In this document: one piece after another, positions 7,044 to 28,596 of the stretch
How the letters are laid out: every line of letters begins with the position of its first letter
Position numbering within the stretch: the first letter of the stretch is position 1
Assembly (NCBI GenBank): GCA_004321885.1
Contig: SCQK01000015.1
Coordinates: forward strand, 1 to 31,763
Length of the DNA stretch: 31,763 nt
Origin: Patescibacteria group bacterium
GTDB lineage: Bacteria; Patescibacteriota; Patescibacteriia; Magasanikbacterales; GWA2-37-8
Reading direction: 5' to 3'
Made by a program: the position numbers and the translations under genes
Notes under the pieces: generated by a model
The model's input: the letters and a program-made list of their open reading frames with translations, nothing else
Told to the model about the DNA's origin: nothing
The model's database searches: none

Positions 7044-7208
7044 ATGAAACTAATTTGTCCGGAGTGCAAAAACGACGTGGATTTGACGGCCTATCCCAAT
7101 ATGGCCGCGGGCAATGTCATAGAGTGCAATGTTTGCGGGATTACCCTCATGGTGAAAGACATGGACGGGGAAAATGTTATTGTTGAGGTGGTTGACGAGG
7201 GGAAATAA
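7044..7208 (+). CDS. Small LysW-like zinc-ribbon protein (54 aa). It is shorter than the 60-aa cut-off and so absent from the ORF track.
   Basis: The translation is MKLICPECKNDVDLTAYPNMAAGNVIECNVCGITLMVKDMDGENVIVEVVDEGK. The CPEC...(17)...ECNVCG spacing and the 'L-V-D' acidic C-terminal half resemble the LysW/ArgW amino-group carrier fold. The canonical EDWGE C-terminal tail is absent, as the protein ends in -DEGK. Confidence 0.4.
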   Translation: MKLICPECKNDVDLTAYPNMAAGNVIECNVCGITLMVKDMDGENVIVEVVDEGK

Positions 7209-8727
7209 GCCTGTCAATCATTCCCCTAAACCCACGCGAGCCCAAAAAGACGATGGTGTCTTCTTTTTGGGCTGTCTTTTTTAAATAAGCGACCAGTGCG
7301 TCGTCGTCCGGCATGAATTTCGCGTTGTTGTGCGTTTTGGAAATAATTTTGGCCAGTTTGGCGCCATTCATAAGCTCGTTGGTTGTCTCCCCCTTGATAA
7401 GGGGGAGATTCACTACCACACCAAAATTTTTGGTGTGGTAGTGAAGAGGGGGTAATTTTAATTTCGTAAGCGCGGGAACAATTACTTCGTTGGCATTGGC
7501 AAAAGCGTGAGCGTACGATGGGGCCGAGGCCGCGCTCCGGCCGCCGGTATTGGGTTCAAATACCGCGTAGATTTTTCCCTTATAAATTTGGCGCAAAGTG
7601 GCGAGGGTTGACTTGGCTTTGGCCGGCGAGTGGGCGATGTCGTCGTAGACATCGGCGCCGCTTGCTTGTCCGCGTTTTTCCAGCCGCCGCTTCAAGCCGT
7701 CAAAAGTTTTAATAGCTGAGAGAATTTTTTCCGGCGCGATGCCGATTGCCGAGGCCAGCGCGAACACCCCGCACAAATTTTGCGCCATAAATTCGCCGAG
7801 CATGGGCGAGGAAACTTTATAAATTTTTTTCCCGTGTCGCAGTTCAAATTTTATGCCGCTGCCGCTCTGGCTAATTTTACCGTATTGGTAGTCGCATCGT
7901 TCAGCTTTGCCATACGTTATTGTCATTGCGAGGCCGTTTGCGGCCGAAGCAATCCCATACGTATTATTAGTAGGAGATTGTTTCGCTGCGCTCGCAATGA
8001 CACTTAAAACCTTCTCATCATCAGCGCACGCCACTATTAGTCCATGTTTTGGTATGGAAGCGATCAAATTTTCAAACGCGTCAAAATAGCTTTCTGCGGT
8101 GGGATAAATATCAGCGTGGTCCCAGCTGATGGAAGCGAGGAGCAGGTGAGTGGGGGAGTAGTGGGAAAATTTTGGTCGCGCATCCCAGCGGGCTGATTTG
8201 TACTCGTCGCCTTCTATCACGCTCCACCCCTCTTTTTTTCCGCTGGCTCCATAGTCCCCCGCAGGGGGCTGTGGAGCCAAACTGCCCATACTCGCCGATT
8301 CAAACCCGCTTATCGCCAGACCGCCGAACATGTAACTCGGCGCGAAATTGGCTTGCGTCAAAATCCACGAGAGCAAAGCCGCGATTGTCGTCTTGCCGCA
8401 GGTGCCGGCGCAGACGATGGAGTTTTGTTTCACGAAATATTCAGCCAATACCTCGGGATATGATTTGTATCTCAATTTTTTTTCCTGCGCCGCCAGCCAT
8501 TCAGGGTTTTGCGAACCGGCCACATTACCCACCACCACTAAATCCGGAGAGTCCATGCGCTCCGGATGCCAGCCCGGGTAAAATGCCACACCCGCAGATT
8601 TCAACCTCGTGGAAACCGGCGGGAAAAAGCCAACGTCACTGCCAGTCACTTTCCATCCGGCTTTCTTAAAAGCAACAGCAATCCCGCTCATTCCCACCCC
8701 GCAAATTCCGATAAAGTGAACATGCAT
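7177..8727 (-). CDS. Mur ligase of the MurC/Mpl family (UDP-N-acetylmuramate:L-alanine ligase or murein peptide ligase). It carries an in-frame GC-rich palindromic insert.
   Basis: The N-terminus 'HFIGICGVGMSGIAVAFKKAGWKVTGSD...YPPVST' is MurC/Mpl-like, with the YPPxST pattern resembling Mpl. Mur ligase middle and C-terminal domains follow. Nucleotides 7386-7456 encode 'KLPPLHYHTKNFGVVVNLPLIKGE' from a palindromic element. Confidence 0.8.
   Translation of the reverse strand: MHVHFIGICGVGMSGIAVAFKKAGWKVTGSDVGFFPPVSTRLKSAGVAFYPGWHPERMDSPDLVVVGNVAGSQNPEWLAAQEKKLRYKSYPEVLAEYFVKQNSIVCAGTCGKTTIAALLSWILTQANFAPSYMFGGLAISGFESASMGSLAPQPPAGDYGASGKKEGWSVIEGDEYKSARWDARPKFSHYSPTHLLLASISWDHADIYPTAESYFDAFENLIASIPKHGLIVACADDEKVLSVIASAAKQSPTNNTYGIASAANGLAMTITYGKAERCDYQYGKISQSGSGIKFELRHGKKIYKVSSPMLGEFMAQNLCGVFALASAIGIAPEKILSAIKTFDGLKRRLEKRGQASGADVYDDIAHSPAKAKSTLATLRQIYKGKIYAVFEPNTGGRSAASAPSYAHAFANANEVIVPALTKLKLPPLHYHTKNFGVVVNLPLIKGETTNELMNGAKLAKIISKTHNNAKFMPDDDALVAYLKKTAQKEDTIVFLGSRGFRGMIDRLISPRQPPQQ
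7920..8000. repeat. A 12-bp perfect inverted repeat 'tgtcattgcgag / ctcgcaatgaca' with a 57-nt spacer inside the Mur-ligase gene. The 'gtcattgcga(g)' half-site recurs at about 13332 and 28598.
   Basis: The arms are at 7920-7931 and 7989-8000, and the spacer contains the small hairpin ggccgtttgcggcc. The same 10-11-mer is seen in the intergenic region at 13332-13343 and at the annotated start of the 28597 ORF. Confidence 0.5.
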
Positions 8728-8745: not shown

Positions 8746-9498
8746 CTATTGTTTTAGTATCTTCTTTAGCTCCTCCAAATTCCTCTTCCACTCCTTCCCG
8801 TCAAACCATTCCAGTCCATTAAACTGTAATTTATAGACATCGGCCGGGCGCTGGGCCGAGCCGATATACACGTATTTTTTTCCCTCCACCTTCGCGTGCA
8901 AAATCGCTTTTTGCATCATGCCCAGGCCCAGGTCTTTTTGTTTGGATTCAAGGTCGTAAAAAGGATAGCTGTAATGCAAGATATTTTTTGTTTCAAAACA
9001 AATGCAGTAGCCCAATACCCCCTCCCCCGTCCTCCCCCTAAGAGGGAGAGGACTACCAGCGGTATTTCCTTCCCCTTTTAGGGGAGGGGCAGGCCACCAC
9101 ACCAAAGATTTTGGTGTGGTGGCAGGGGGTGGGGTATAAATCAATAACAAATTAAAGTTGCTTTTTGCCGGGTCAGTCAGCATCTCTTTTATTTTTTGTG
9201 CGGAGAAAATTTTCGGTCCAAATTTTTTTTCGTAAAAATCCTTGCCCATCTTGTGCACGCGCCAGTCATAATCAGAGTAGGGGAGAGGGGCCGCGTCCAG
9301 TTCAAAATTTTTCGTATGGCTCAAAATGCGCCGGTTCTCGCTGTTTAGAATAAATTTGCCCAAATCAATGCGCACACTGCGCGTTTGATTCATATCGCCT
9401 TTGCCCGTGCGCGTAAAAACAAAACCCTCACTGTAAAGTTTTTCTACATTTTCATCCGCGAAATCAGAAATTGTTTTCTTGTTCCAAGATAGATACAT
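8746..9498 (-). CDS. ATE/Bpt-family (arginyl-/leucyl-tRNA-protein transferase-like, ATE_C domain) aminoacyl transferase. It carries a large in-frame palindromic-element insert.
   Basis: An 'GFVFTRTGKG...MNQTRSVRIDLGKF' segment resembles the ATE 'GWRRSG...QT..IR...F' region. The C-terminus 'YSYPFYDLESKQKDLGLGMMQKAILHAKVEGKKYVYIGSAQ' matches the ATE_C pattern Y-x-FYD-[PL]...SLG...I..AK..G..Y.Y[IL]G. Nucleotides 9010-9135 encode a Pro/Gly-rich 'TPPPATTPKSLVWWPAPPLKGEGNTAGSPLPLRGRTGEG' stretch. Confidence 0.55.
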   Translation of the reverse strand: MYLSWNKKTISDFADENVEKLYSEGFVFTRTGKGDMNQTRSVRIDLGKFILNSENRRILSHTKNFELDAAPLPYSDYDWRVHKMGKDFYEKKFGPKIFSAQKIKEMLTDPAKSNFNLLLIYTPPPATTPKSLVWWPAPPLKGEGNTAGSPLPLRGRTGEGVLGYCICFETKNILHYSYPFYDLESKQKDLGLGMMQKAILHAKVEGKKYVYIGSAQRPADVYKLQFNGLEWFDGKEWKRNLEELKKILKQ

Positions 9499-10656: not shown

Positions 10657-10660
10657 AGTT

Positions 10661-10723
10661 TGTCATGCTGAACTTGTCACCACACCAAAATTTTTTGGTG
10701 GTGGTGACAAGTTCAGGATGACA
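10661..10723. repeat. About 63-nt near-perfect palindrome (extended A-type element) filling the spacer between the NlpC/P60-like stop and the mraY start.
   Basis: The sequence is tgtcatgctgaacttgtcaccacaccaaaa | ttttttggtggtggtgacaagttcaggatgaca. The arms are complementary except for 1-2 positions. The core 'caccacaccaaa-tttggtg(g)tggtg' is shared with 4 intragenic copies. Confidence 0.8.
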
Positions 10724-10724
10724 G

Positions 10725-11580: not shown

Positions 11581-13338
11581 CTAAGTACGGGGGAATCCAG
11601 TACTTATTCGTTTAATCAATTTCGCCTTCAAAGTTTCCGGCAATAGATGAGTCTGCCCCAGTTTCTCCACTTCCACCCATTCCAATTGGTAGGAATTATT
11701 CGGATTATTGCGCGCCTGCTCGGGCCCGCCCAAAAATTCTTTGCCGGAAATATTTTTACCGAAAAAATAATGCTCTCGGCGCGGCGAGGCAATGGCGATA
11801 ATTTTTTTGCTTTCGTCAATTTCAAAATCCAAATTCGTCTCCTCTTTGGTTTCGCGCATGGCCGTGACGCGAAAATTTTCATTCGGCTCCACGGTGCCGC
11901 CGGGCATGGCAAAGTATTCATTGCCGTACTTGTTGCGCTTCATCAGCAAAATTTTGTCGTCTTTAATTAAAATCACGCCGGCGCGCGGCCGGTTCCAAAT
12001 CATATTTTTATGCGCTGAAATAATACCCACTAAAATAGACATCCCGACCTCGTTGAAAATGTTGTGTTTTTCCATCAACCCGCTCTCGCTTTGCACGCGA
12101 ATCAGGTCCGTGCCTAGTTTTACATTCTGGTACATTATGATATTAAAACTTTGCACGGCCTTGATTCTGGGTATTTCCAGTTCGTCTATGTTCAAAGTGA
12201 CCCTCTGCACGATTTGCGCGCCGTTTGTGATGGCCTGCAGGCGGTAGTCGTCCGGCGGCACGTCCAAAAGCGCGGCTACGTGCGCCTGAAAAGTGGTGGC
12301 GGCCGGCCGCGGCTTCATCAGTCCGCCCAGCCGTTTTTTGGGCGCGGCCTTGGCCATGGCCAACTCCTGCAACTGGGATTCAAAACTGGCCGAGGCCGGC
12401 TGGCGCGCGTTTACTTCCACCAGATACACTTGTCCGCCGGCTTCGTCTATCACCGCGTCTATGCCATAAAGCCCCTTCCATCCCTGGCTGGCCAGCCGTT
12501 CGCCTACTTCAATGGCTATTTTTTTGTACTGGGCCGCCTGTTCTTCGGTCAAAATTTTGCGCGGCATAGACCAGTCGTTGCCGATAGTGGCAAAGGGCAT
12601 GTCGGTAAAAGGCTTCAGGCCAGTGATTTGATAGCTGATGTTGCCGACAAACACCCTGTTTCCCCAGACCACGTTGTTGTTGGTAAAAAGCGGCCCCTTG
12701 ATGTACTCGGTTACGCGCACGTCGCGCCGCGGAAATTTTTCCCGTATCTCCTGCAGTTGTTTTTTGGATTCCACTAAAATTGTGCCCAGGCCCGTGTGCG
12801 AGCGGTTGAACTGCACGATAAACGGCTTGCCTTTCCACACCAGGTTGGCGCACAAGTCTATGCGGTGGGAAGGCAAGTGCGATGCCAATGGCCCCAGCCA
12901 ACGCACCTGGGAAATTTTTTCCTCCACTTCGTTGCAAAATTTGGCGCTCGGGTTGAGCAGGGCCCAGCCGTGGTCCGCGCAGAGCTCTTCTATATATATA
13001 TTGTTCTTAAACACCAAAACAAAGTCGCCTTTTTTGAGCAGAGACAAAGTTTTTTTGCGCGTCAGCAGTTCGCGCGTATCCAGCGGCCGCGGGTTGTCTA
13101 TCAAGATGATATTTTTGAAGCGCTTGGCCAGCTTGGACGAGTAGGAATTTTTGTTGGTGATGATATATATGCCGGGCTGGTGAAAATCCAGACCCTCGGC
13201 GCGCTCCACATCGCGGCAAACATAAAACAAACGCCGGCCAACGAGCTTGTTCGCGACTTCTTTGATAATATTTGATAACGGCATAGATTTAGTATATACT
13301 ACCTCAAAATTACCTGTGGCGCAATATCTGTTAGTCAT
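11581..13338 (-). CDS. Fusion protein with an N-terminal ATP-grasp ligase domain and a C-terminal NUDIX hydrolase domain.
   Basis: The ATP-grasp signature 'GLYGIDAVIDEAGGQVYLVEVNARQPASAS' (E-x-N) is present. The Nudix box 'PGGTVEPNENFRVTAMRETKEETNL' (GX5EX7REUXEEXGU) is in the last about 150 aa. A single uninterrupted 585-aa ORF encodes both domains. Confidence 0.7.
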   Translation of the reverse strand: MTNRYCATGNFEVVYTKSMPLSNIIKEVANKLVGRRLFYVCRDVERAEGLDFHQPGIYIITNKNSYSSKLAKRFKNIILIDNPRPLDTRELLTRKKTLSLLKKGDFVLVFKNNIYIEELCADHGWALLNPSAKFCNEVEEKISQVRWLGPLASHLPSHRIDLCANLVWKGKPFIVQFNRSHTGLGTILVESKKQLQEIREKFPRRDVRVTEYIKGPLFTNNNVVWGNRVFVGNISYQITGLKPFTDMPFATIGNDWSMPRKILTEEQAAQYKKIAIEVGERLASQGWKGLYGIDAVIDEAGGQVYLVEVNARQPASASFESQLQELAMAKAAPKKRLGGLMKPRPAATTFQAHVAALLDVPPDDYRLQAITNGAQIVQRVTLNIDELEIPRIKAVQSFNIIMYQNVKLGTDLIRVQSESGLMEKHNIFNEVGMSILVGIISAHKNMIWNRPRAGVILIKDDKILLMKRNKYGNEYFAMPGGTVEPNENFRVTAMRETKEETNLDFEIDESKKIIAIASPRREHYFFGKNISGKEFLGGPEQARNNPNNSYQLEWVEVEKLGQTHLLPETLKAKLIKRISTGFPRT

Positions 13339-13423
13339 TGCGAGCCCCGACGTTACGCCGGAGAGGAATCCCTTTTGGCATTAATAAAATCACAGTAAAT
13401 CGCTAATTTTACTAAATTTTATT

Positions 13424-14023
13424 ATGAAAAACGAAATAAAAGAAATAGAAAAAGACTTAGAATTTGTAAAAAATATTTATATAAAACTTCTAACGATATT
13501 GCCCAGTTTTAATATTACTGATAGCAAAATTTTGCCTTATGGCTTAAAAGCGCACACTAGATCGGTAAGTTGGTTAGTTGAGCAAGTTATTACACAGCAA
13601 ACTAAATTCAATGCAAAGAAACTTGATTTAGATGAAGTTAATTTTGACTTCCCAGATACCTCACTACATGATTGCGAAATTATTTATAAAGGGAGAAGTT
13701 ATTTTATAAATGTTAAAATTCACAATATTGGAAGCAAAGAAAATAAAAATGATATTTCTGCGGTAGAAAAACTTTATTTTCAATACAGTGTTAATAAAAA
13801 TTATACCTTAATATATGCTTGCTTTGGCATTAAATTTGAAAATATAAAAATAAATTTTGTTAAAGATTATTTAGAAGTTTTCTCGCCACAGTTTCTACCA
13901 ATTTATGTGAATCCTCGAAATGACAAAATTCAAGCCACCTATAGACATGATAAAGTATACAGAACGCGAGATGAATTTCTAAAAATGTTAAAAGAAAAAT
14001 CAAAAAGTATTATTTTAAAATAG
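13424..14023 (+). CDS. Putative type II restriction endonuclease, the R subunit of an AT-rich R-M islet.
   Basis: The 199-aa ORF has extremely low GC (about 20%). It lies 2 nt upstream of, and is co-oriented with, a beta-class DNA methyltransferase. No recognisable family motif was found, which is typical for REases. The assignment is by context. Confidence 0.45.
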   Translation: MKNEIKEIEKDLEFVKNIYIKLLTILPSFNITDSKILPYGLKAHTRSVSWLVEQVITQQTKFNAKKLDLDEVNFDFPDTSLHDCEIIYKGRSYFINVKIHNIGSKENKNDISAVEKLYFQYSVNKNYTLIYACFGIKFENIKINFVKDYLEVFSPQFLPIYVNPRNDKIQATYRHDKVYRTRDEFLKMLKEKSKSIILK

Positions 14024-14025
14024 CT

Positions 14026-14847
14026 ATGAATAAAATTTTTAACGAAGATATTTTATTAGGAATAGATAAAATAGAAGACAATTCTATTGATTTAATTTTA
14101 ACTGATCCTCCTTATTGTTTAGGCAAAGATTATGGCAATGATTCTGATCAAAAATCATCTGAGGATTATCTGAACTGGACATATCAATGGATTGATGCGG
14201 TTTTGCCTAAATTAAAAAATAGTGGAAGTTTTTATATTTTTTTAAGCTGGCAATATTCACCAGAAATTTTTTGTTATTTAAAAAAGAAATTACGAATGGT
14301 CAATGAAATTATTTGGGATAGACGAGTGCCAAGCATGGGCGGTTCTACTAGAAAATTTTCATCTGTCCACGACAATATAGGTTTTTTTGTAAAAAATAAT
14401 AATTATTATTTTGATTTAGATAGCATTAGAATTCCCTACGATGAAGAAACTAAAAAAGCAAGAACTCGATCAATTTTTGTTGGAAAAAAATGGTTAGAAA
14501 TGGGCTACAATCCAAAAGATTTATGGAGTACACCAAGAATACACACACAAGACCCTGAAAGAGAAAATCACCCAACCCAAAAACCTTTAGAAATAATTGA
14601 ACGAATGGTAAAAGCAAGTTGTCCTAAAAACGGAATTGTTTTTGATCCATTCATGGGAACCGGAACAACTGCTATCGCTTGCCTATCAAGCAATAGGCAA
14701 TATGTAGGATTTGAAATAAATAAAGATTATCACAAACTAATAACAAATCGAATCAAGAAACATAATAGTTGCCCGACTTTATTTCAACAACAGAAGCAAA
14801 AACAAGGTAATTTGACTCAAGGCATTCACCTATGCACGATAAATTGA
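14026..14847 (+). CDS. DNA methyltransferase, beta-class amino-MTase (N4-cytosine or N6-adenine), type II R-M system M subunit.
   Basis: An N-terminal 'DLILTDPPYCLG' (motif IV, DPPY) precedes a C-terminal 'HPTQKPLEIIERMV...VFDPFMGTGTTAIA' (motif I/SAM binding), giving the circularly permuted beta-class order. The composition is AT-rich. Confidence 0.85.
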   Translation: MNKIFNEDILLGIDKIEDNSIDLILTDPPYCLGKDYGNDSDQKSSEDYLNWTYQWIDAVLPKLKNSGSFYIFLSWQYSPEIFCYLKKKLRMVNEIIWDRRVPSMGGSTRKFSSVHDNIGFFVKNNNYYFDLDSIRIPYDEETKKARTRSIFVGKKWLEMGYNPKDLWSTPRIHTQDPERENHPTQKPLEIIERMVKASCPKNGIVFDPFMGTGTTAIACLSSNRQYVGFEINKDYHKLITNRIKKHNSCPTLFQQQKQKQGNLTQGIHLCTIN

Positions 14848-15758
14848 AACAATTCGGCCGCGTGAAAATCAACGAGCCGCTGGCCAAACATAATACATTT
14901 AGAATCGGCGGCCGGGCCAAGTTTCTTGTCATTGTGGATGACACGAACAAGCTCGTCGGCCTGCTTAATTTTTTGTCCGGGGCCGGAGAAAAATATTTTA
15001 TCGTGGGAGGCGGGTCCAATCTGCTGTTTTCCGACGATGAATTTGACGGGGTTATAATAAAAGTGCAAACATCCAAAATAGCGATAAAGGAAACCATGAT
15101 AGAAGCCGAGGCCGGGGTTTTGCTGTCCTTAGCCGTGAACATGGCCGCGCAAAACAGATTGGCTGGTCTGGAGTGGGGAGTGGGCATACCGGGCACTGTG
15201 GGCGGAGCCGTGCGCGGCAATGCCGGCGCCATGGGCGAGGATATGTCGTGCGTGCTTGACAGCGCGGATGTCTGGAGCGACGGTGAAATTTTGACCTTGA
15301 AAAAAAAAGAGTGCGGCTTTGGCTATCGCGACAGCGCGTTCAAAGCCGGCGGCGTGGTTTTACGCGCGCGTTTGGCTTTGCGCCGCGGCGACAAACAAGA
15401 AATCGCGGCCAAAATGGCGAAAAACGCGGCCCAGCGCGCCAGCCGCATCTCGCGCTTTGCCTCGGCCGGCAGTTTTTTCAAGAACATCAAGACCGAATTG
15501 TGGAAGCACGAAAAAACCGAAATGGATGAAATTTTTCATAAGCGCGGCAAGGTGCCGGCCGGCTGGCTGATAGAACAGGCCGGCTGTGCCAGGCTGGTTA
15601 GGGGCGGGGCGCGCGTTTCCGACGAGCACGCCAACATTATCGTGAATACCGGCGAGGCGACCGCCAAAGATGTTTTGGATTTAGTTGCTGAAATAAAAGA
15701 GAGCGTGTATAATAAATTTGGGGTGGAGTTGGAGGAAGAGGTGGAGATAGTGAGATAA
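14832..15758 (+). CDS. murB: UDP-N-acetylenolpyruvoylglucosamine reductase MurB.
   Basis: Motifs 'NTFRIGGRAKF', 'IVGGGSNLL' and the C-terminal 'SDEHANIIVNTGEATAKDVLDL' are characteristic MurB motifs. The start overlaps the methyltransferase stop by 16 nt. Confidence 0.85.
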   Translation: MHDKLKQFGRVKINEPLAKHNTFRIGGRAKFLVIVDDTNKLVGLLNFLSGAGEKYFIVGGGSNLLFSDDEFDGVIIKVQTSKIAIKETMIEAEAGVLLSLAVNMAAQNRLAGLEWGVGIPGTVGGAVRGNAGAMGEDMSCVLDSADVWSDGEILTLKKKECGFGYRDSAFKAGGVVLRARLALRRGDKQEIAAKMAKNAAQRASRISRFASAGSFFKNIKTELWKHEKTEMDEIFHKRGKVPAGWLIEQAGCARLVRGGARVSDEHANIIVNTGEATAKDVLDLVAEIKESVYNKFGVELEEEVEIVR

Positions 15759-15767
15759 AAAATCATT

Positions 15768-15860
15768 GTGTTTCTGAATGTGTTCTCGCTTTCCTCGGCC
15801 GCGAGGCCTCGGGCGTGGCGCTGTGGCGCCACAAGCCGCTGCGAACACATTCAGAAACAC
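15768..15860. promoter_or_regulatory. Large stem-loop between murB and hpf: an 18-bp perfect inverted repeat enclosing a 57-nt GC-rich self-complementary core. It is a candidate terminator, RNA structure or MITE-like element.
   Basis: The arm gtgtttctgaatgtgttc lies at 15768-15785 and gaacacattcagaaacac at 15843-15860. The core contains the sub-palindromes ggccgcgaggcc and ggcgctgtggcgcc. A T-run (caatttttatg) follows immediately before the hpf ATG. Confidence 0.6.
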
Positions 15861-15871
15861 AAACAATTTTT

Positions 15872-16231
15872 ATGCAAATACAAATAACCGGAAAGGGGAT
15901 AGAGCTGACAGACGCCATAAAGGATTACGTGGAAAAAAAGATGCTGGCTTTGGAAAAATTTTACGGCCGGATAATCCGCGCCGACGTGAGCGTGGGGGTG
16001 GAAAACCACCATCATCAAAAAGGAAAAATTTTCGTGGCCGAGTGCAAGTTGGAAGTGCCGGGCAAAGACTTGTTCGCCGGCAAAAATGAAAAAACTTTGT
16101 ATAAGGCAGTGGATAAAATCCGCGATTATCTGGAGGGCGAGCTGAAAAAACACAAGGTCAGATTGCAGGAAAAAAACCCCAAAGACAAGCGGCTCGTGCG
16201 CGCCAGCAAAGAATATCTTCCAGAAGAATGA
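15872..16231 (+). CDS. hpf: Ribosome hibernation promoting factor (short HPF/YfiA family).
   Basis: The translation 'MQIQITGKGIELTDAIKDYVEKKMLALEKFYGRIIRADVSV...' is the typical HPF N-terminus. The start is placed at the ATG at 15872. The longer track ORF from 15815 would read through the upstream hairpin. Confidence 0.8.
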   Translation: MQIQITGKGIELTDAIKDYVEKKMLALEKFYGRIIRADVSVGVENHHHQKGKIFVAECKLEVPGKDLFAGKNEKTLYKAVDKIRDYLEGELKKHKVRLQEKNPKDKRLVRASKEYLPEE

Positions 16232-18573
16232 AAGAGCAGGCAATAAAATTGATTAGGCGTTTTTGGCCGGCTGGCTATGGCTTGGTCGGCTCTTTTATTA
16301 TTTCCGCCGGCTGGAACTGGTATCACACCGCCCATCGTCCCCACTGGCGCATTATTCTCATCACGCTCGGCGTTTGGGTGGTTGTTTACGCAGGTTTTCG
16401 CGGATTCAAATGGCTTTATGCGTACTTTACGCGGCGCTTCCGCAGGCACGAGTTTTGGCAAAAGAATTTTTACGTTGTTTTAGACCAGCTTTATTTTATT
16501 TTCTCGCTTATTTTTTTGGTTTTTTTCTCGCGCGACGAAATCGTCTCGGCCCTCTACGCGCCCGTGATTTTTTTAATCTTTTATTGGCGCCTTGACCGGT
16601 ACCTCAAAAAGCACCCCGATGGCGGAATGTGGCGCCGCGTCGCGCGCGCGTTTTTTTTGTTCGGCTTTTTTATTTTTCTATTGATGGATGTTTTGCAATA
16701 TTTTGCTTTTCGTTTGTATATACTGGACCCAAACGCCAAAATTTTTAACATTGTTTTTTTCCGCGCTTGGGCCATGGCCATATTTTGGCTGGCTACATTT
16801 GCCGTCTGCGCCATCTGGTATCGCTTCACGCGCAAATGGCATCGCTACGCGCCACTCGGTTTTTGGGCGCTTTGCTTTGTCGTCTATGCCGCGCTGTGGG
16901 CGCTAAATGTAGGCGTGCTCTACTACTCGGGCTTGTACTTAAATCCGGCGCTTTTGGAACACGCCGAGGGCGGCGCCGGCGCCGGTTATCTTTCCACCGG
17001 CGTCAGCTATTTACTTTTCGCGTTATTGGCAGTAATGCTGGGTCTTTTCACTGTGCTATTTAAAAAAATCATGAAAGCGCACGGAAATTCGGCTACGCGC
17101 CACTGGAATTATTACCATTTCGCCCTCATTGCTTTGGCGCTGTTTACTTTTTTGGCCGTGGCCAGCTTCAAAACCACTCCCGAATATCTTATCATCCGTT
17201 CTTTTTATAAATACTTCCGCGGCGAAACCGAAAAAATAGAATTGAACCAGGCGGTCAAGACAAAATTAGAGCGATTTGGTCTGAAATACAACACGGACCA
17301 GTTCTACGTCGCGCACAAGGATACGGTTTATCGCTCAAATCCTCCACTCCTCGCCCCAAAATTCTCTACCAAAAAACCCAACCTCGTCATCGTTTTCCTG
17401 GAGTCCTTTTCCAGTCGCCTCACCGGCGTTTATAATCCCAAATACAAAGAGCTTACCCCGGGCCTCAACAAAATGGCCGCGGACAAAAATACCACTGTTT
17501 TCAAAAACTACTACAATGCCAGCACTCCGTCCATCACTGGCATTATTTCTTTGCTTTGCTCGTACCTCACGCCATTCGGCCACAATGAAATTCAAAACGA
17601 AAACCGCTTGCAAAGAACTGGCCTGATGTGCCTGCCGCGCGCCCTGAAAAAAAACGGCTACAAGGATTTTTTGTATATGACCGCGGTGAGCGAGGAATTC
17701 GCCAACAAGGGCTCCATTGCCAAAAGCATGGGCATAGAAAAAATGCTGGGCCAGGAAGAGCTGAAAAAATACATCAAAGCTCCGCCCCTGGCCTGGGGCT
17801 ACAGCGACCACCAGATGTTTCCGTTGTTTTTTGATTTGATGCCAAAACAGCGCGAACCGTTTTTGATGATGCTGGCCACAGTGGACACGCACCCGCCGTT
17901 TACCACGGCCAAGGATATTTTGAAATATAAAAGCGGGGGCAGCAACATGCTCAACACTTTTCACACCACCGACGACGGCTTCTCCAAATTTTGGGACCAG
18001 TTCAAGGCCAGCCCGTATTACGAGAATACAATTTTGATTGCCGTGGCCGACCACGCGGTTTTTCCGGTGGCCTACGACAAAAAGGGTTTTCCCGACGAGT
18101 ATGGCAAGCGCACTTTTTACGACGAAAATTTGTTCCTGCTCTACGCGCCTGAAAATGTTCTGCCCAAAGAGGTCAAGACGCTTTCGTCGGGGATTGATTT
18201 CACGCCAACGATTTTGCAAATGCTTGGGATAAACAAGGTGCCAAACGCGTTTGAAGGACATTCTATTTTTGACGACCGCGCCAAATTTCCAAACATCCTC
18301 GGCATGCACGAGTTCGGGCTGTATATAAACCAGGCGATTTCTCAAAATCCTACCCCTATTAGGGGGAGGGCGGGCCACCACACCAAAGAATTTGGTGTGG
18401 TGGCAGGGGAGGGGGTTGAACGTCGCACCGACTACGCGGTCCCATCGCATCTGGAATGCGCCGACGCCGAGGTCGGCGCTTCATCCAGCACCCCGCTCAC
18501 CCTTTGCGAATTTTTGCATTTCTACAAATGGAAACGCCAGATGATGGAAGAGGGCCGGTTTTGGGAGAAGTAA
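16228..18573 (+). CDS. LtaS/MdoB-like sulfatase-domain (alkaline-phosphatase superfamily) membrane protein. The N-terminal multi-TM is followed by an extracytoplasmic phosphotransferase domain, with an in-frame GC-rich insert near the C-terminus.
   Basis: About 300 aa of hydrophobic helices precede 'PNLVIVFLESFSS...NASTPSITGIISLLCSY...ATVDTHPPF', which is sulfatase/LtaS-like. Nucleotides 18353-18480 (B and A palindromes plus the gcgccgacgccgaggtcggcgc hairpin) encode 'PTPIRGRAGHHTKEFGVVAGEGVERRTDYAVPSHLECADAEVGASS'. Confidence 0.6.
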   Translation: MKEQAIKLIRRFWPAGYGLVGSFIISAGWNWYHTAHRPHWRIILITLGVWVVVYAGFRGFKWLYAYFTRRFRRHEFWQKNFYVVLDQLYFIFSLIFLVFFSRDEIVSALYAPVIFLIFYWRLDRYLKKHPDGGMWRRVARAFFLFGFFIFLLMDVLQYFAFRLYILDPNAKIFNIVFFRAWAMAIFWLATFAVCAIWYRFTRKWHRYAPLGFWALCFVVYAALWALNVGVLYYSGLYLNPALLEHAEGGAGAGYLSTGVSYLLFALLAVMLGLFTVLFKKIMKAHGNSATRHWNYYHFALIALALFTFLAVASFKTTPEYLIIRSFYKYFRGETEKIELNQAVKTKLERFGLKYNTDQFYVAHKDTVYRSNPPLLAPKFSTKKPNLVIVFLESFSSRLTGVYNPKYKELTPGLNKMAADKNTTVFKNYYNASTPSITGIISLLCSYLTPFGHNEIQNENRLQRTGLMCLPRALKKNGYKDFLYMTAVSEEFANKGSIAKSMGIEKMLGQEELKKYIKAPPLAWGYSDHQMFPLFFDLMPKQREPFLMMLATVDTHPPFTTAKDILKYKSGGSNMLNTFHTTDDGFSKFWDQFKASPYYENTILIAVADHAVFPVAYDKKGFPDEYGKRTFYDENLFLLYAPENVLPKEVKTLSSGIDFTPTILQMLGINKVPNAFEGHSIFDDRAKFPNILGMHEFGLYINQAISQNPTPIRGRAGHHTKEFGVVAGEGVERRTDYAVPSHLECADAEVGASSSTPLTLCEFLHFYKWKRQMMEEGRFWEK

Positions 18574-18579
18574 ATTTTT

Positions 18580-20211
18580 ATGAATCAAGAGCGGGCCCTG
18601 CAAATTTTAAAAACCGGCGCCAATGTTTTTCTGACCGGCGAACCCGGGTCGGGTAAAACGCACACGGTAAACGCTTATGCGCGTTATCTGCGCCAGAGGG
18701 GGATCGCGCCGGCGATTACCGCGTCCACCGGCATAGCCGCCACGCATATCGGCGGTTTTACGATACACTCGTGGAGCGGCATAGGCGTAGCGCCTCGGCT
18801 GGACAGATATTTGCTTGATAAAATTTCCACAAACGAGAGGGTGGTAAAGCGCGCGGGCGCGGCCAAAGTGCTGGTGATAGATGAAGTTTCAATGCTCGGC
18901 CCGGAAACTTTGTCCATGGTTGACGCGGTTTTGCGGGAAATCAAAAGATGCCGCGAGCCGTTTGGCGGCTTGCAAATAATTTTAGTGGGTGATTTTTTTC
19001 AATTGCCGCCGGTGGAAAAAAACCTTCCGGAAATTCAGAATAGTTTACTCCAAGATAGGCCGGCGCGATTCGCCTTTGATTCGCCGGGCTGGAAAAATCT
19101 GCGGCCAATGGTTTGCTATCTCACGGAACAGCATCGGCAGGACGATCCGCAATTTTTGGGTTTGCTTTCCGCCATCCGTGGAAATCGCTTTAGCGACAAT
19201 CATCTATCTTTGATAAACAGCCGTAAAACCGAATCCGCCCAAGCGCCCGATCGCGTTCCCAAACTTTTTTCCCATAACATTGACGTTGGCCGCGTAAACG
19301 ATGAAACATTGTCCAAGCTTCCCGGGCCGGAAAAAACTTTTTTTATGTCATCGCGCGGAAACCCGCGATTGGTTGAATTTTTAATAAAGGGTTGCCTATC
19401 GCCTGAAAAACTTTGTTTAAAAAAGGGCGCGGCCGTGATGTTCACGAAAAATAATCAGGCCGAAGGGTATGTCAACGGCACGCTGGGAGTGGTACAAAAT
19501 TTCAGCGAGTCAGGCGCTCCGATTATAAAAACGCGCGGCGGGCGGTTTATTGATGTGACAGCGGCCGAGTGGGCGCTGGAAGACAACGGACGCGTGCTGG
19601 CGACGATTGAACAATTGCCCCTACGTTTGGCCTGGGCCATTACCGTGCACAAAAGTCAGGGTATGAGTTTGGATGAAGCGACCATGGATTTGAGCCGTGT
19701 TTTTGAATATGGACAGGGATACGTGGCTCTGTCGCGCGTGCGGCGGCTCTCGGGCGTGCATTTGCTGGGCTGGAACGAACGCGCTTTCGCCGTGCACCCG
19801 GAGGTTTTGGAAAAAGATCAGGAGTTTAGAACTTCGTCGTTGGCATCGGAAGAGGCGTTCGCGAAATTGCCGGACGAGGAACTAAAAAAAATGAGCGATA
19901 ATTTTGTCGTGGCCTGCGGAGGCCAGGTCGGTGGCGTCGTGTCCCCCTCCTTTATAAGGAGGGGGCAGGGGGAGGTATTGCAGGGGTCATCGCGGTCGGG
20001 CGGCTTTGATAAAATCCGTCAAGATCACCCAAACGCCTATCGCCCGTGGGAGCCGGAGCAAGACGAAGAATTAAAAAAACTTTTCGCGCGAAAAACATCA
20101 ATCAAGGATATATCAAAAAAACTTGGCCGCAAAAAAGGCGGCATCACTTCGCGCCTGGTGCGTCTGGGCGTTGTTGAAAGCCGCGAGCAAGCCAGGGCAC
20201 AGCGCGGTTAA
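18580..20211 (+). CDS. SF1B PIF1/RecD-like ATP-dependent DNA helicase with a C-terminal HTH-like tail.
   Basis: Walker A 'TGEPGSGKTH', Walker B 'VLVIDEVSMLG' and 'ILVGDFFQLPPV' are present. The C-terminal portion is UvrD_C-like, and the last about 60 aa are 'KKLFARKTSIKDISKKLGRKKGGITSRLVRLGV'. Nucleotides 19943-19965 (B-type palindrome) are in frame, encoding 'VVSPSFIRRGQGE'. Confidence 0.75.
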   Translation: MNQERALQILKTGANVFLTGEPGSGKTHTVNAYARYLRQRGIAPAITASTGIAATHIGGFTIHSWSGIGVAPRLDRYLLDKISTNERVVKRAGAAKVLVIDEVSMLGPETLSMVDAVLREIKRCREPFGGLQIILVGDFFQLPPVEKNLPEIQNSLLQDRPARFAFDSPGWKNLRPMVCYLTEQHRQDDPQFLGLLSAIRGNRFSDNHLSLINSRKTESAQAPDRVPKLFSHNIDVGRVNDETLSKLPGPEKTFFMSSRGNPRLVEFLIKGCLSPEKLCLKKGAAVMFTKNNQAEGYVNGTLGVVQNFSESGAPIIKTRGGRFIDVTAAEWALEDNGRVLATIEQLPLRLAWAITVHKSQGMSLDEATMDLSRVFEYGQGYVALSRVRRLSGVHLLGWNERAFAVHPEVLEKDQEFRTSSLASEEAFAKLPDEELKKMSDNFVVACGGQVGGVVSPSFIRRGQGEVLQGSSRSGGFDKIRQDHPNAYRPWEPEQDEELKKLFARKTSIKDISKKLGRKKGGITSRLVRLGVVESREQARAQRG

Positions 20212-20337
20212 GTCAACTAAAACCGTCCCATTCGAGTCGCCTCAAAAGCGGCTTTTCTTGTAATTTCCGGCGGGGAGGAGTAAAATAAGGTTAAAAACCA
20301 AAATGAATGTCCAATTATAGACATAATAGGATCCAGC

Positions 20338-21171
20338 TTGTCGGGTATGTCAAAAATTTTGGAAAATATTAAGCAGCGACCATATTTTTCGAAGAACAAT
20401 TTTGTCCTGTACAGGGACAACTGTTTAAATATTCTGGGAAAATTACCAGAGAATTCGGTTGACATGATTTTTGCAGATCCTCCTTATTTGCTTTCGAACG
20501 GCGGAATGACGTGCAATGGGGGGAAAATGGTAAGCGTTGATAAAGGGCAGTGGGATGTGAGTAACGGTTTAAAAAAGGACTGGGAATTTCATTTGAGCTG
20601 GATTAAAGCGTGTCATCGAGTATTAAAGCCATGCGGAACAATTTGGATAAGTGGGACCTATCACTCCATTTATCAATGCGGATTCGCTTTGCAGGTCAAC
20701 AAATTTCATATTTTGAATGATATTGCCTGGTTCAAACCGAATGCGTCTCCAAATTTGAGTTGTCGATTTTTTACTGCTAGCCACGAAACGATTATTTGGG
20801 CTCGGAAAGATAAAAAAGGAAAACACAAATTTAATTATGAGCTAATGAAAAACAGAGACTGGACGGGTGATTTTATAAAAAAACCGAATCTTCAAATGCG
20901 AAGTGTTTGGGCTATTTATCCTCCCAAAAAAGAAGAAAAGATTTTTGGTAAGCACCCCACTCAAAAACCGATAGATTTATTGGTTAGGATTATCCTCGCA
21001 AGCACAGATAAGGGCGACATTGTTTTGGACCCATTTACCGGCTCTTCAACTTCAGGGCTGGCGGCATTTTTGAATGAAAGAAAATTCGTTGGTATTGATT
21101 TGGAAAAAAAATATCTAGATATATCCATTAAACGTTTCAGCAGTTTTAAAAAAGAAGCCCCTCATTTATGA
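20338..21171 (+). CDS. Orphan beta-class DNA amino-methyltransferase (N6-adenine or N4-cytosine).
   Basis: An 'DMIFADPPYLL' (DPPY) motif is N-terminal, and 'HPTQKPIDLLVRIILAST..GDIVLDPFTGSSTSG' is C-terminal. The islet is low-GC (about one-third). No intact REase ORF is adjacent. Confidence 0.85.
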   Translation: MSGMSKILENIKQRPYFSKNNFVLYRDNCLNILGKLPENSVDMIFADPPYLLSNGGMTCNGGKMVSVDKGQWDVSNGLKKDWEFHLSWIKACHRVLKPCGTIWISGTYHSIYQCGFALQVNKFHILNDIAWFKPNASPNLSCRFFTASHETIIWARKDKKGKHKFNYELMKNRDWTGDFIKKPNLQMRSVWAIYPPKKEEKIFGKHPTQKPIDLLVRIILASTDKGDIVLDPFTGSSTSGLAAFLNERKFVGIDLEKKYLDISIKRFSSFKKEAPHL

Positions 21172-21303: not shown

Positions 21304-23616
21304 ATGGCGCAAAAAGTTTTCACGACGACAAAAACCCCACCCCCTGCCACCGCCGCGAGGCGGGGCCCCGCCGTGGCGGTGGCCCCTCCCCTAAAAGGGG
21401 AGGGGGCCAACTGGATTCCCGCCTCCGCTGGAATGACAACTTTAGAAAAATTAGCCCGGATGTTGCGGGCCCTGATATTCGCCTCGGTGGAAGCCGGCCA
21501 ATCAGGCCATCCGGGCGGCAGCAGTTCCAAGGTGGAGCAATTTTTAACAATGCTCCTCGGCGGTTTTGTGGCTTTTGACCCGGCCAATCCTAAAAATCCC
21601 GGGCGCGACCGCGTGGTGTGGAGCTCTGGCCATTGTACGCCTTTGCTCTACGGCGGTCTGGCCATGCTCTATGAAGCCATGCGGCGCGAGGGCAGGCAAT
21701 TTTCCAAAGCCGCTGTGGGCGCCGTGTTTCCCGAAGACCTGGCCAGCTTTCGCCAGACCCACGGCTTGCCCGGGCATGCTGAAAGCGTGTATCCGCTGGT
21801 GGATGTTTCCACCGCCTCATCAGGCCACGGGCTGTCAGCCGCGGTTGGGATAGCCATGGCACACAAATCCAGTGGTCTTGATACAAAAATTTGGGTGCTC
21901 ATGGGTGATGCCGAAACTGAAGAAGGCATCAGCTACGAAGCGCGCAATGTGGCCGCGGCTTCGGGCCTAAACAATGTTATTGTTTCTTTGGATTACAACG
22001 GCTTTGGCATAGACGGCCCCATCACCGAGGCCATGGTTTCCAGCCCGGGCGCGCAGTGGTCGGCCCTGGGCTGGAATGTGCTCATAGCCGACGGCCATGA
22101 TTTTTCCGCCCTGGCCGCGGCCTACGCTAAAGCACAGCGCGCGGACAAGCCCACGGTGGTGGTTTGCCGCACCATCAAAGGCAAGCATTATGGGGCGCGG
22201 GAAAACAGCCATTCTTCGCACGGCACGCCCTTGCCTCATGACGAGTATGCCGCGGCAGTCAAAAAATTAGGGTTTGATATAAAAGGAGAAAAGGGCAAGG
22301 CCATCGCGGACATAGAAAAAATTATAGACCAGCTGGGCGAACGCGAGGCTGATTTTATTTCCAAAGCGCTCAAAAAATGCGCGGCCAAAATCAAACCCGA
22401 AGAAGAGCTGGTAAAAAAAATGAAAACCGCCCTGCCGGGCAGGCCGTTTAAGGGCGTTCTGAATGTGCAGCGGCCGAAAAAATTGTCGCCCGAACTGGTG
22501 TTTGCTCCGGGCGCCAATGTCAGCGGGCGCAAGGCGGCCCAGGCCTGGTGCAAATGGCTGATGACCCAGAGCGCGTTTGTGTTTGCCGGCGCCGGCGACG
22601 TCAGCAAGTCCGTACTCACTGCCGCGGCGGAAAACGTGTACGGCGTTATCGGACCGGCCAATCCGCTGGGCCGCGGCATTCGCTTTGGCATTGCCGAGGC
22701 CAACATGGGCATGGTTGCCAGCGCGCTGTCGCAGGAAATTTTGCCCGGCGGCATTCGGCCCTCTTGTATTTTTGGCACCTACAGCGTGTTCGCCCCCATG
22801 ATGGCCAACAGCATTCGCATGTCTTTAATTGACAGAAAAATAAATAAAGACCGGCGCGGATTTTTTGTGGCTTTGGCGTCTCACGACGGACCAGAAACAG
22901 GCGAAGACGGCCCCACACATCAGGGTCTTTACTGGATGTCGCTTTTTGACGCCTATCCGGGCATAAAAGTGTACAAGCCCGCCGACGCCAACGAAACAAT
23001 AGAAATGCTTTTTCACGCCCTCCAAATCGGCGAGCCGATAGTTTTGTCTTTGCCGCGCGCGGACTGGCCCGTGATAGACCGCGCTTGCGCGCCGGCGGCC
23101 AGCGAAGCGAATAACGGCGCGTATGTTTTTAAGGATTACACCCCCTCCTCGCCACCACACCAAAGCATTTGGTGTGGTGGCGAGCCTCCCCCTTCTAAAG
23201 GGGGAGGGAAAACGGCTGCTCCACAAATAAGGGGAGGGAAACGTATCGTGCTCGCCGTCTGCGGAGGCCAGCTCTTGCAAAACACGCTGGCCATACTGCC
23301 AGACTTGGAAAAGAAAAAATTGAACGTCAAAATTATCGTGGTAACGGCGCCCGAGCTGTTTGAGGATTTGCGCGCTCGCGACCCGAAAAAAGCGCGCGCT
23401 ATTTTAAGCGACGAAGAACGCGCCGACATAATCACCCTGCACAACGGCTGGCCCGGATTTTTGCGCCGATTTTTACTGCCGGAAAATTACGCCGCGCGCG
23501 AAATCGGAGTCGCGGATTTTTTGGTTTCCTGCAAACCGGCCGACGCCTACGACATCGCCGAACTTTCGCCCAAAGACCTAATAAAAAAAATCCTAAAAAA
23601 TGTCAAAGATAACTAA
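21304..23616 (+). CDS. tkt: Transketolase (TPP-dependent). The likely true start is the ATG at 21433, because the first 43 codons of the long ORF lie in C- and B-type palindromic elements. It also carries an internal in-frame A/B element.
   Basis: Motifs 'SGHPGGSSS', 'GDAETEEGISYEA' and 'GEDGPTHQG' are transketolase hallmark motifs. Nucleotides 21346-21405 are palindromic repeats. Nucleotides 23150-23240 (A plus B elements) encode 'PSSPPHQSIWCGGEPPPSKGGGKTAAPQIRGGK'. Confidence 0.85.
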   Translation: MAQKVFTTTKTPPPATAARRGPAVAVAPPLKGEGANWIPASAGMTTLEKLARMLRALIFASVEAGQSGHPGGSSSKVEQFLTMLLGGFVAFDPANPKNPGRDRVVWSSGHCTPLLYGGLAMLYEAMRREGRQFSKAAVGAVFPEDLASFRQTHGLPGHAESVYPLVDVSTASSGHGLSAAVGIAMAHKSSGLDTKIWVLMGDAETEEGISYEARNVAAASGLNNVIVSLDYNGFGIDGPITEAMVSSPGAQWSALGWNVLIADGHDFSALAAAYAKAQRADKPTVVVCRTIKGKHYGARENSHSSHGTPLPHDEYAAAVKKLGFDIKGEKGKAIADIEKIIDQLGEREADFISKALKKCAAKIKPEEELVKKMKTALPGRPFKGVLNVQRPKKLSPELVFAPGANVSGRKAAQAWCKWLMTQSAFVFAGAGDVSKSVLTAAAENVYGVIGPANPLGRGIRFGIAEANMGMVASALSQEILPGGIRPSCIFGTYSVFAPMMANSIRMSLIDRKINKDRRGFFVALASHDGPETGEDGPTHQGLYWMSLFDAYPGIKVYKPADANETIEMLFHALQIGEPIVLSLPRADWPVIDRACAPAASEANNGAYVFKDYTPSSPPHQSIWCGGEPPPSKGGGKTAAPQIRGGKRIVLAVCGGQLLQNTLAILPDLEKKKLNVKIIVVTAPELFEDLRARDPKKARAILSDEERADIITLHNGWPGFLRRFLLPENYAAREIGVADFLVSCKPADAYDIAELSPKDLIKKILKNVKDN

Positions 23617-27024: not shown

Positions 27025-27051
27025 GAAATGGTCGCCTGAGGCGACCATTTC
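27025..27051. terminator. Perfect 12-bp-stem hairpin between the nucleotidyltransferase gene and the blaI-like gene.
   Basis: The sequence is gaaatggtcgcc tga ggcgaccatttc. No T-tract follows, so it may be a terminator or a regulatory structure. Confidence 0.3.
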
Positions 27052-27092: not shown

Positions 27093-27476
27093 ATGCGGCC
27101 ATCATCGGGTTTGGGAACACTGGAGCGAAAAATAATGGAAACAATCTGGGACGCCGGCGACTCGGCATCGGTGCGCGCTGTTTTTGATTGCCTGAAAACG
27201 AAAAAAAAGATTTGCTATACCACGGTGATGACTATAATGACCCGCTTGTGCGAAAAAAACATGCTTAGGCGCGCCATGGGCGAAGACGGCGCGTATATTT
27301 ACAGCGCCGCGCAAAGCAAAAAAGATTTTTTGAGATCGGTGTTTAAGCGCACCGTGGGCGCCCTGGTGGGGCAATTCGGCGAGCTGGCCGTGGCCCAGTT
27401 TATAGACGCGGTGGAATCCAGCAACCTGAAAAACTTAAAAGAGTGGCGCGAGAAATTGAAGAAGATTCTGAAATAA
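27093..27476 (+). CDS. BlaI/MecI/CopY-family winged-helix transcriptional repressor.
   Basis: An 'LGTLERKIMETIWDAGDSASVRAVFDCL....YTTVMTIMTRLCEKNMLRR' segment matches the Penicillinase_R fold. The protein is 127 aa. An M56-peptidase gene lies immediately downstream. Confidence 0.8.
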   Translation: MRPSSGLGTLERKIMETIWDAGDSASVRAVFDCLKTKKKICYTTVMTIMTRLCEKNMLRRAMGEDGAYIYSAAQSKKDFLRSVFKRTVGALVGQFGELAVAQFIDAVESSNLKNLKEWREKLKKILK

Positions 27477-27500
27477 ATTCAGAATGACAATGAATATTGA

Positions 27501-28546: not shown

Positions 28547-28584
28547 TTGACAACTTTTCCTGCCTACTACATAATGTAGTAGGC
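28547..28584 (+). promoter_or_regulatory. Promoter (TTGACA-17-CATAAT) with an overlapping 23-nt perfect palindrome containing TACA-N3-TGTA. This is a candidate BlaI/CopY-type operator controlling the downstream redox cluster.
   Basis: TTGACA is at 28547-28552, CATAAT at 28570-28575, and the palindrome gcctactacaTAAtgtagtaggc at 28562-28584. The BlaI/MecI/CopY operators are TACA/TGTA dyads that overlap the -10. Confidence 0.55.
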
Positions 28585-28596
28585 ATTGAATTTTTA

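Follow-up and report, generated by a model that had tools for sequence, protein, structure and literature searches.

MITEs, short for miniature inverted-repeat transposable elements, are non-coding elements of <500 bp that end in terminal inverted repeats of 4-30 bp; they are typically AT-rich, and the direct repeats that flank them can decay with age (PMC10969869). The bacterial MITEs used for comparison here are the Correia, ERIC, RUP and BOX elements and others (PMC10969869). The Rickettsia palindromic elements (RPEs), found in Rickettsia, are about 150 bp long and lie in frame in unrelated conserved genes, to which they add peptide segments (PMC10969869). REPINs are doublets of REP sequences (repetitive extragenic palindromes) that form hairpins and are mobilised by RAYT (REP-associated tyrosine transposase) proteins (PMC3116915, PMC3337134). 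RAYTs are described as typically single-copy (PMC5581495). Here we describe a palindrome of about 97 bp between murB and hpf/raiA (site 1), and a second inverted-repeat site inside a Mur ligase gene (site 2), on contig SCQK01000015.1. The window analysed is the complete contig, 31,763 bp long, of a metagenome-assembled genome (MAG) from the Patescibacteria (Candidate Phyla Radiation, CPR). Our favoured reading, held with about even confidence, is that site 1 is an orphan, lineage-specific nested hairpin insertion, one product of a hairpin-adding process that acted across the contig, and that it is tolerated by folding out of the operon junction.

Site 1 lies downstream of murB (UDP-N-acetylmuramate dehydrogenase; 14832..15758, plus strand; Pfam MurB_C and FAD_binding_4) and upstream of hpf/raiA (ribosome hibernation factor; 15872..16231, plus strand; Pfam Ribosomal_S30AE), whose product has an N-terminus, MQIQITGKG, that agrees with homologues. 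A first-pass annotation of this DNA had placed an 18-bp perfect inverted repeat here, GTGTTTCTGAATGTGTTC at 15768-85 with its reverse complement at 15843-60. The repeat is present as placed, and the full perfect repeat is longer, at 20 bp: the left arm TTGTGTTTCTGAATGTGTTC (15766..15785; 35% GC) is the perfect complement of the right arm GAACACATTCAGAAACACAA (15843..15862). All 20 arm pairs are Watson-Crick, as expected of a palindrome made at the DNA level. The core between the arms (15786..15842) had been described as 57 nt long, GC-rich and self-complementary, between the murB stop and the hpf start. It is indeed 57 nt and 75% GC; in RNA and DNA folds a short CGC/GCG base carries a pair of small, perfect hairpins, CCTCG-GCCG-CGAGG and GTGGCGC-TGTG-GCGCCAC. 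Outward, the arms extend imperfectly to 31 nt with 90% complementarity (15755-85/15843-73), and the extended repeat fills the murB-hpf spacer, reaching the TAA stop of murB (15756-58) on one side and the ATG of hpf (15872-74) on the other. Its left extension, ATAAAAAATCA (15755..15765), holds the murB stop codon and pairs imperfectly with the right extension, ACAATTTTTAT (15863..15873), which holds the first two bases of the hpf ATG; the A/T tracts of these extensions resemble the ancestral AT-rich spacer of relatives. Folding, which had been proposed as a check, gave a Y shape for the RNA (the 20-bp stem, the CGC/GCG base and the two hairpins) at -59.8 kcal/mol (z -7.15), and -40.1 kcal/mol (z -8.85) for the DNA. 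Site 1 is the longest perfect inverted repeat of the window, and arms of >=14 appeared in 0 of 30 shuffles.

An assembly artefact was considered for site 1 and dropped. It is unlikely because the genes on either side differ and because a contig of an independent Logan assembly (run SRR8426592) reproduces the left half: it runs through murB and the left arm and ends 24 nt into the core. This Logan contig, from the same organism, breaks inside a hairpin at each end (window positions ~11573 and ~15807): one break falls within a GTCATTCCCCCG...CGGGGGAATC unit, the other within site 1, in its CCTCGGCCGCGAGG sub-hairpin. Hairpins that are poorly covered, or branching of the assembly graph at repeats, could account for these breaks. 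Two further candidates were also dropped: an integron attC site, since site 1 lacks RYYYAAC/GTTRRRY ends, and a 6S RNA or riboswitch, given a perfect stem that has no Rfam match and is not conserved.

The gene order around site 1, with a NUDIX gene on the minus strand followed by murB, hpf and a sulfatase gene on the plus strand, is kept in seven related lineages. The murB-hpf spacers of these relatives are 14, 26, 26, 30 and 34 nt long in the five that are AT-rich, 63 nt in L045, the closest relative, and 77 nt in L046; the spacer of the window is 113 nt. Removal of 15766-15862 leaves a 16-nt spacer, AAAATCA|ACAATTTTT, of the kind usual in the relatives. The two longer spacers fold no better than shuffles (z -1.07 for L045 and +0.68 for L046). 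Because the relatives keep the synteny with spacers of 14-34 nt in 5/7 lineages, and without a significant hairpin, site 1 is, judged from these spacers, a lineage-specific and recent addition. In the L045 spacer (1116-1178) about 15 nt of the hpf start region stand in tandem duplicate, AAACAATTTTCATCA then AAACAATTTTTATGCA, and there is an 8-bp stem, TGATGAAA/TTTCATCA, whose fold is not significant. The lineage of the window is an isolated one, since among 5.8 billion proteins the nearest MurB is only 64% identical and the nearest HPF only 78%. A MurB-based search for related loci in GTDB genomes found no relatives, and exact-sequence look-ups of HPF and the sulfatase-like protein returned no record.

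Site 1 sits in a contig loaded with palindromes. Perfect repeats with arms of >=12 number 11 in the window, many of them lying in frame within genes, as against 0.5 in shuffles and 2 in ~33 kb of relatives; with arms of >=14 there are 7, as against 0 in shuffles and 1 in the same ~33 kb. Four 120-nt windows surpass site 1 in folding energy after correction for GC, which puts it only fifth, and three of these four are within genes. The Mur ligase (7380-7450), hypothetical (9015-9135), sulfatase-like (18340-18425) and transketolase (23130-23220) genes each contain a composite double-hairpin element of ~70 nt, in which GCCACCACACCAAA-nnn-TTTGGTGTGGTGGC comes after a CTCCCCCT..AGGGGGAG hairpin. 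The element adds 19 aa (PPLHYHTKNFGVVVNLPLI) to the Mur ligase that are absent from 10/10 homologues, and 23 aa (AISQNPTPIRGRAGHHTKEFGVV) to the sulfatase-like protein that are absent from 5/5 relatives. The palindrome of this element was found neither in IMG/VR nor in the loci of the relatives. The Mur ligase gene also holds a near-perfect palindrome, TGGCTCCATAGTCCCC-CGCA-GGGGGCTGTGGAGCCA at 8244-8279, at the position of an insertion, LAPQPPAGDYGASGKK, that nine of ten homologues lack and the remaining one has in a shorter form; with site 2, this gene has three in-frame palindromic insertions that all or nearly all homologues lack. Perfect palindromes are found as well inside the transketolase gene (GCCACCGCCGCGAGGCGGGGCCCCGCCGTGGCGGTGGC and CCCCTCCCCTAAAAGGGGAGGGG, 21347-21405) and in intergenic spacers (GAAATGGTCGCCT/AGGCGACCATTTC at 27025-27051 and TGCCTACTACAT/ATGTAGTAGGCA at 28561-28585). 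Between convergent genes at 1887-1981 is a nested hairpin with a 14-bp perfect outer stem, ACAAAAAAACCACC/GGTGGTTTTTTTGT, around a 67-nt core that includes a CTCCCCC...GGGGGAG hairpin; flanked by A7/T7 and with a folding energy of -57 kcal/mol (z -6.4), it looks like a bidirectional terminator built in the manner of site 1. Clearly, a process that adds perfect hairpins, which are tolerated in frame, has acted in this lineage.

Two hairpins at other gene junctions may be kin of site 1. The first, I2 (10660..10724), has arms TTGTCATGCTGAACTTGT and fills the spacer between two co-directional minus-strand genes, a spacer of 1-4 nt in the relatives. The I2 arms enclose a CACCACACCAAA...TTTGGTGGTGGTG palindrome, which gives a nested structure like that of site 1, and on an alignment compared by eye TTGTCATGCTGAACTTGT is ~68% identical to the site 1 arms (TTGTGTTTCTGAATGTGT). 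The second is a unit, GTCATTCTGAATTTATTTCAGAATC (GTCATTCTGAAT...TTCAGAATC), at 27464..27490 on the minus strand between blaI-like and blaR1-like genes; it belongs to the GTCATTS...SAATC family described below. An arm motif, TTGTCATTCTGAAT, is common to site 1, I2 and this unit. With <=1 mismatch allowed, the motif TTGTNNTNCTGAANNTGT of site 1 and I2 has a fifth site at 27473-90, with 0.03 sites expected in all. In each of the three hairpins the motif TTCAG.A..ACAA ends 9-10 nt upstream of the downstream ATG. These shared motifs are suggestive of kinship between site 1, I2 and the 27464-27490 unit.

We propose that a palindrome with AT-rich 20-bp arms and a GC-rich double-hairpin core was added to an otherwise short (~16 nt) murB-hpf spacer, in a contig that appears to be peppered with perfect hairpin insertions both in frame in conserved genes and at co-directional gene junctions. 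Most likely it would have arrived, or been built by nesting, as non-autonomous hairpin DNA of the REP/REPIN or MITE kind, and would not have evolved as a regulatory RNA. When transcribed in the murB-hpf-sulfatase unit, site 1 would fold into a Y-shaped stem-loop of about -60 kcal/mol that loops out the 97 nt, so that the helix base would stand 7 nt from the murB stop and 9 nt from the hpf start. That it persists would be best explained by its lying structurally out of the way; possible side effects include a barrier to 3' exonucleases or an attenuator. The reading draws on direct observations: site 1 forms this stable structure, relatives lack it, the searched data contain it once only, and the contig around it is rich in palindromes. 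From these we infer how it originated and what it may do to expression.

Compared with known elements, site 1 resembles a MITE in being 97 bp long, non-coding and bounded by 20-bp perfect inverted ends, in lying in an AT-rich intergenic spacer and in its stably folding transcript. Of the MITE interpretation offered in the first-pass annotation, the part that stood is that site 1 is extra DNA relative to its relatives. Several results weigh against an origin as mobile hairpin DNA. There is no second copy of site 1 within the 31.8-kb window, and the 20-mer arm has 0 exact matches when one genome per GTDB species is searched. The 18-mer has 44 matches in JGI metagenomes and 7 in IMG/VR (viral), all of them chance single arms with neither partner arm nor core; the core hairpin has 0 matches in IMG/VR. 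A six-frame peptide concatenate of site 1 matched nothing among 5.8 billion predicted proteins, and blastn against plasmid records gave short GC-rich chance matches only. The flanks, ...AAAATCA and ACAATTTTT..., where target-site duplications were to be looked for according to the first-pass annotation, hold no direct repeat at any plausible boundary, although the missing repeat is not decisive because such repeats decay with age. The window has no parental insertion sequence (IS), no transposase being found by Pfam among its open reading frames (ORFs), and a core of 75% GC differs from the typical AT-rich MITE. The arm likeness to the other junction hairpins involves short sequences and a motif derived from the data themselves, and the A-tract/hairpin/T-tract order at site 1, together with the similar nested hairpin at 1887-1981, leaves room for a terminator-like role. 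The likeness to REPINs is one of overall shape only, two inverted arms on either side of a spacer that together make a hairpin where two genes meet; site 1 differs in that its arms are not hairpins themselves and in being single-copy in the searched data.

This singleton status and the lack of a target-site duplication are why an origin in situ, which we think rather improbable, stays a serious alternative. Here site 1 would have been made during replication by template switching or inverted duplication (quasi-palindrome correction), with the ancestral spacer serving as one arm; it would never have been mobile and would have no function. The perfect Watson-Crick pairing of the arms fits this explanation, as does sequence in common with L045: AAACAATTTTTATG, directly 3' of the right arm, is identical there, as are the 14 nt up to and including the hpf ATG, and GCCGYTGCGAA and CAT(T)CAG occur, in that order, in the spacers of both L045 and the window. 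However, homology between the two spacers is suggestive and not significant (p about 0.03-0.07), and the explanation does not say where a core of 75% GC would come from when the spacer is AT-rich. The contig moreover clearly holds multi-copy dispersed hairpin families, so an insertion process exists here.

We also consider it unlikely that site 1 is a selected cis-acting RNA, either an intercistronic terminator or attenuator of murB, a leader that occludes the hpf start until the helix opens, or both. Such a role would suit a very stable hairpin across the whole spacer, whose main helix ends 9 nt upstream of the hpf AUG and whose outer A/U helix takes in the A and U of that codon. Like an intrinsic (Rho-independent) terminator, site 1 is a stable GC-containing hairpin after a stop codon, with an A6 tract upstream and a T5 tract downstream, and the similarly built hairpin at 1887-1981, with its A7/T7, stands between convergent genes, where a terminator is expected. 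However, the stem-loop, 97 nt long with a three-way junction, is far larger than canonical terminators, the T tract (TTTTT) begins 4 nt past the perfect stem, and a consensus terminator scan makes no call. Site 1 is part of a conserved operon in which the next start codon follows after 9 nt, and a full terminator would leave no room for a promoter for hpf and the downstream gene. The perfect stem, which has no G-U pairs, is typical of young DNA palindromes. Nor is the structure conserved: 5/7 related lineages have spacers of 14-34 nt, and neither of the longer spacers folds significantly. Structure with covariation, as would mark a conserved cis-regulatory RNA, was not found at the locus in relatives, the nearest in the comparison having 64% MurB identity; there is no comparative support among the seven related lineages for a selected RNA structure. 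Although site 1 adjoins hpf/raiA, neither a leader RNA of these genes nor any other Rfam 15 family reaches the gathering score there or anywhere in the window. Local E-value scans with Rfam at both sites gave nothing meaningful, 15600-16000 yielding three meaningless matches at E up to 10.

More doubtful still is the idea that site 1, I2 and the 27464-90 unit are copies of a dedicated 'junction hairpin' element with the arm motif TTGT..T.CTGAA. In such an element the near-perfect hairpin would join stop and start at the base of the helix and so could keep translational coupling (termination-reinitiation) across 60-100 inserted nt. Palindromy would then let selfish DNA colonise the packed operons of a reduced CPR genome, as staying in frame does in coding sequence.

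Site 2 turned out to be of another kind. It lies within an uninterrupted ORF, the Mur ligase gene (7177-8727, minus strand; identified by Pfam, with Mpl/MurC as the nearest structures), in frame as the first-pass annotation had said. That annotation placed a 12-bp repeat at 7920-7931/7989-8000. The repeat is real; its actual coordinates are 7921-7932 (TGTCATTGCGAG) and 7991-8002 (CTCGCAATGACA). A 12-bp arm is weak evidence by itself, since shuffles average 0.5 repeats with arms of >=12, and the reality of site 2 rests on an analysis of repeat units, not on arm length. The arms are formed by the 5' ends of two short hairpin units. Unit 1, GTCATTGCGAG-GCCGTTTGCGGCC-GAAGCAATC (7922..7954, plus strand), makes the left arm, and unit 2, GTCATTGCGAG-CGCAGC-GAAACAATC (7976..8001, minus strand), makes the right arm in inverted orientation. 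A direct repeat, CCATACGT at 7910-17 and 7955-62, brackets unit 1; its copies are 45 nt apart and the addition is therefore in frame. A 16-residue insertion in the Mur ligase, NNTYGIASAANGLAMT, falls exactly at unit 1 and is absent from 10/10 aligned homologues. The whole site folds at -37.1 kcal/mol (z -4.7). Site 2 is thus an in-frame inverted doublet of a widespread hairpin unit, GTCATTSC...GSAATC, and is unrelated to site 1. A MITE-like reading of site 2 captured a repeated palindromic element with inverted ends, but the element is of a different kind, a doublet of short units with a variable spacer.

We searched for this unit with a strict pattern in IMG/VR, GTCATTGCGAG-N(4-30)-GAAGCAATC, and with a generalised one in the window, GTCATTS-N(6-36)-SAATC. 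The strict unit is present in at least 120 IMG/VR contigs, with at least 181 units; among the matches listed, the contigs span 38-68% GC and the commonest inner sequence is CGAAGC, followed by CGCAGC. Many of the listed contigs have several units, and outward-facing inverted doublets of 66-119 nt are common (L073, L088, L089, L091, L093, L094, L106, L127, L129 and L143). Variants of the unit include GTCATTCCGAG...GAGGAATC and GTCATTCTGAG...GAAGAATC, and GC, CC and CT variants are widespread in IMG/VR contigs. Direct repeats that flank the IMG/VR units are at most slightly more frequent than in controls, and of the five longest matches three are artefacts of arrays or low complexity. In the window the generalised pattern occurs 9 times against 0.45 expected, a count reached in 0/100 shuffles; it was found in none of the relatives' loci. 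A third unit, GTCATTGCGAG...GAGGAATC (13334..13370, plus strand), lies at the start of the NUDIX/ATP-grasp gene, and pattern matches mark further units at 2964-88, 5679-5704, 11568-97, 21414-37 and 30833-70. A half-site that had been noticed at about 13332 and 28598, GTCATTGCGA, is exact at 13334-43, where it is part of a full unit, and at 28599-608, where it stands as a half-site only. At least five of the nine units (2964, 5679, 7922, 7976 and 21414) are wholly inside Pfam-supported genes. Three units directly precede start codons, so placed that the mRNA reads GAUU...AAUGAC and then the start.

The family has much in common with REPs and REPINs. Its members are hairpin units of 24-38 nt that vary at the top but keep their ends, GTCATTSC...GSAATC. 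They are far more numerous than expected, stand singly or pair up as inverted doublets to give a larger hairpin, and have no systematic target-site duplication. REPs are extragenic by definition, whereas the units in this contig are mostly inside ORFs. REPs are also usually species-specific, whereas the unit consensus recurs across contigs of 38-68% GC. A conserved 5' GTAG motif is a feature of REPs and is absent from these units, and no RAYT was matched among the large ORFs of the window in Pfam. We found no published name or description of the GTCATTSC...GSAATC unit in the literature. Site 2 is a member of this widespread REP/REPIN-like family, unusual here for its in-frame location in a gene. 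Together with the ~70-nt double-hairpin element in its four genes, site 2 is also like the RPEs, as in-frame palindromes that add peptides. The elements here are, however, 25-70 nt long and in a Patescibacteria MAG, the comparison with RPEs is one of description and not of sequence, and site 1 differs from RPEs in being intergenic.

A single IS-derived MITE type, with terminal inverted repeats around a 57-nt core and with sites 1 and 2 as its copies, is a very improbable reading, which goes back to the MITE-like elements suggested in the first-pass annotation: both sites are inverted repeats with similar spacers, and the left flank and arm start of site 1, TCATTG, are reminiscent of the GTCATTG at the ends of site 2, but the spacers said to be identical measure 57 nt at site 1 and 58 nt at site 2, the arms have nothing in common, site 1 has no direct repeats, the 'arms' of site 2 are the ends of two short hairpin units, other doublets of the family total 66-119 nt so that spacer length is not a family character, and the window holds no IS with matching ends. 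The alignment of the two cores that had been recommended broke the supposed link, since shuffles scored at least as well in a fraction of 0.46 forward and 0.76 in reverse complement. Because the spacers are 57 and 58 nt and neither cores nor arms are alike, the 'equal spacer' is a near-coincidence.

Elsewhere in the contig, the sulfatase-like membrane protein gene (16228-18573, plus strand; Pfam) follows hpf. A gene pair of low GC (33%), coding for a 199-aa hypothetical protein and an N6/N4 DNA methylase, separates the NUDIX gene from murB (13424-14847), and a Pif1-like helicase with a second N6/N4 methylase separates the sulfatase-like gene from transketolase (18580-21171); both pairs are absent from the syntenic loci of relatives. 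Positions 1-2000 of the window are 61-64% GC, as against ~50% contig-wide, and a 508-aa ORF at 74-1600 has a weak, sub-threshold Pfam repeat match only. No tRNA or tmRNA genes were found in the window.

Taken by itself, site 1 is a modest curiosity. More notable is the contig-wide load of hairpin insertions, both in frame and at gene junctions, several of them in frame in essential cell-wall and central-metabolism genes. Hairpin inserts of this kind matter for annotation, as they create spurious peptides and break assemblies. If they are mobile, these hairpins would show how selfish DNA can invade compact genomes without breaking genes or operons.

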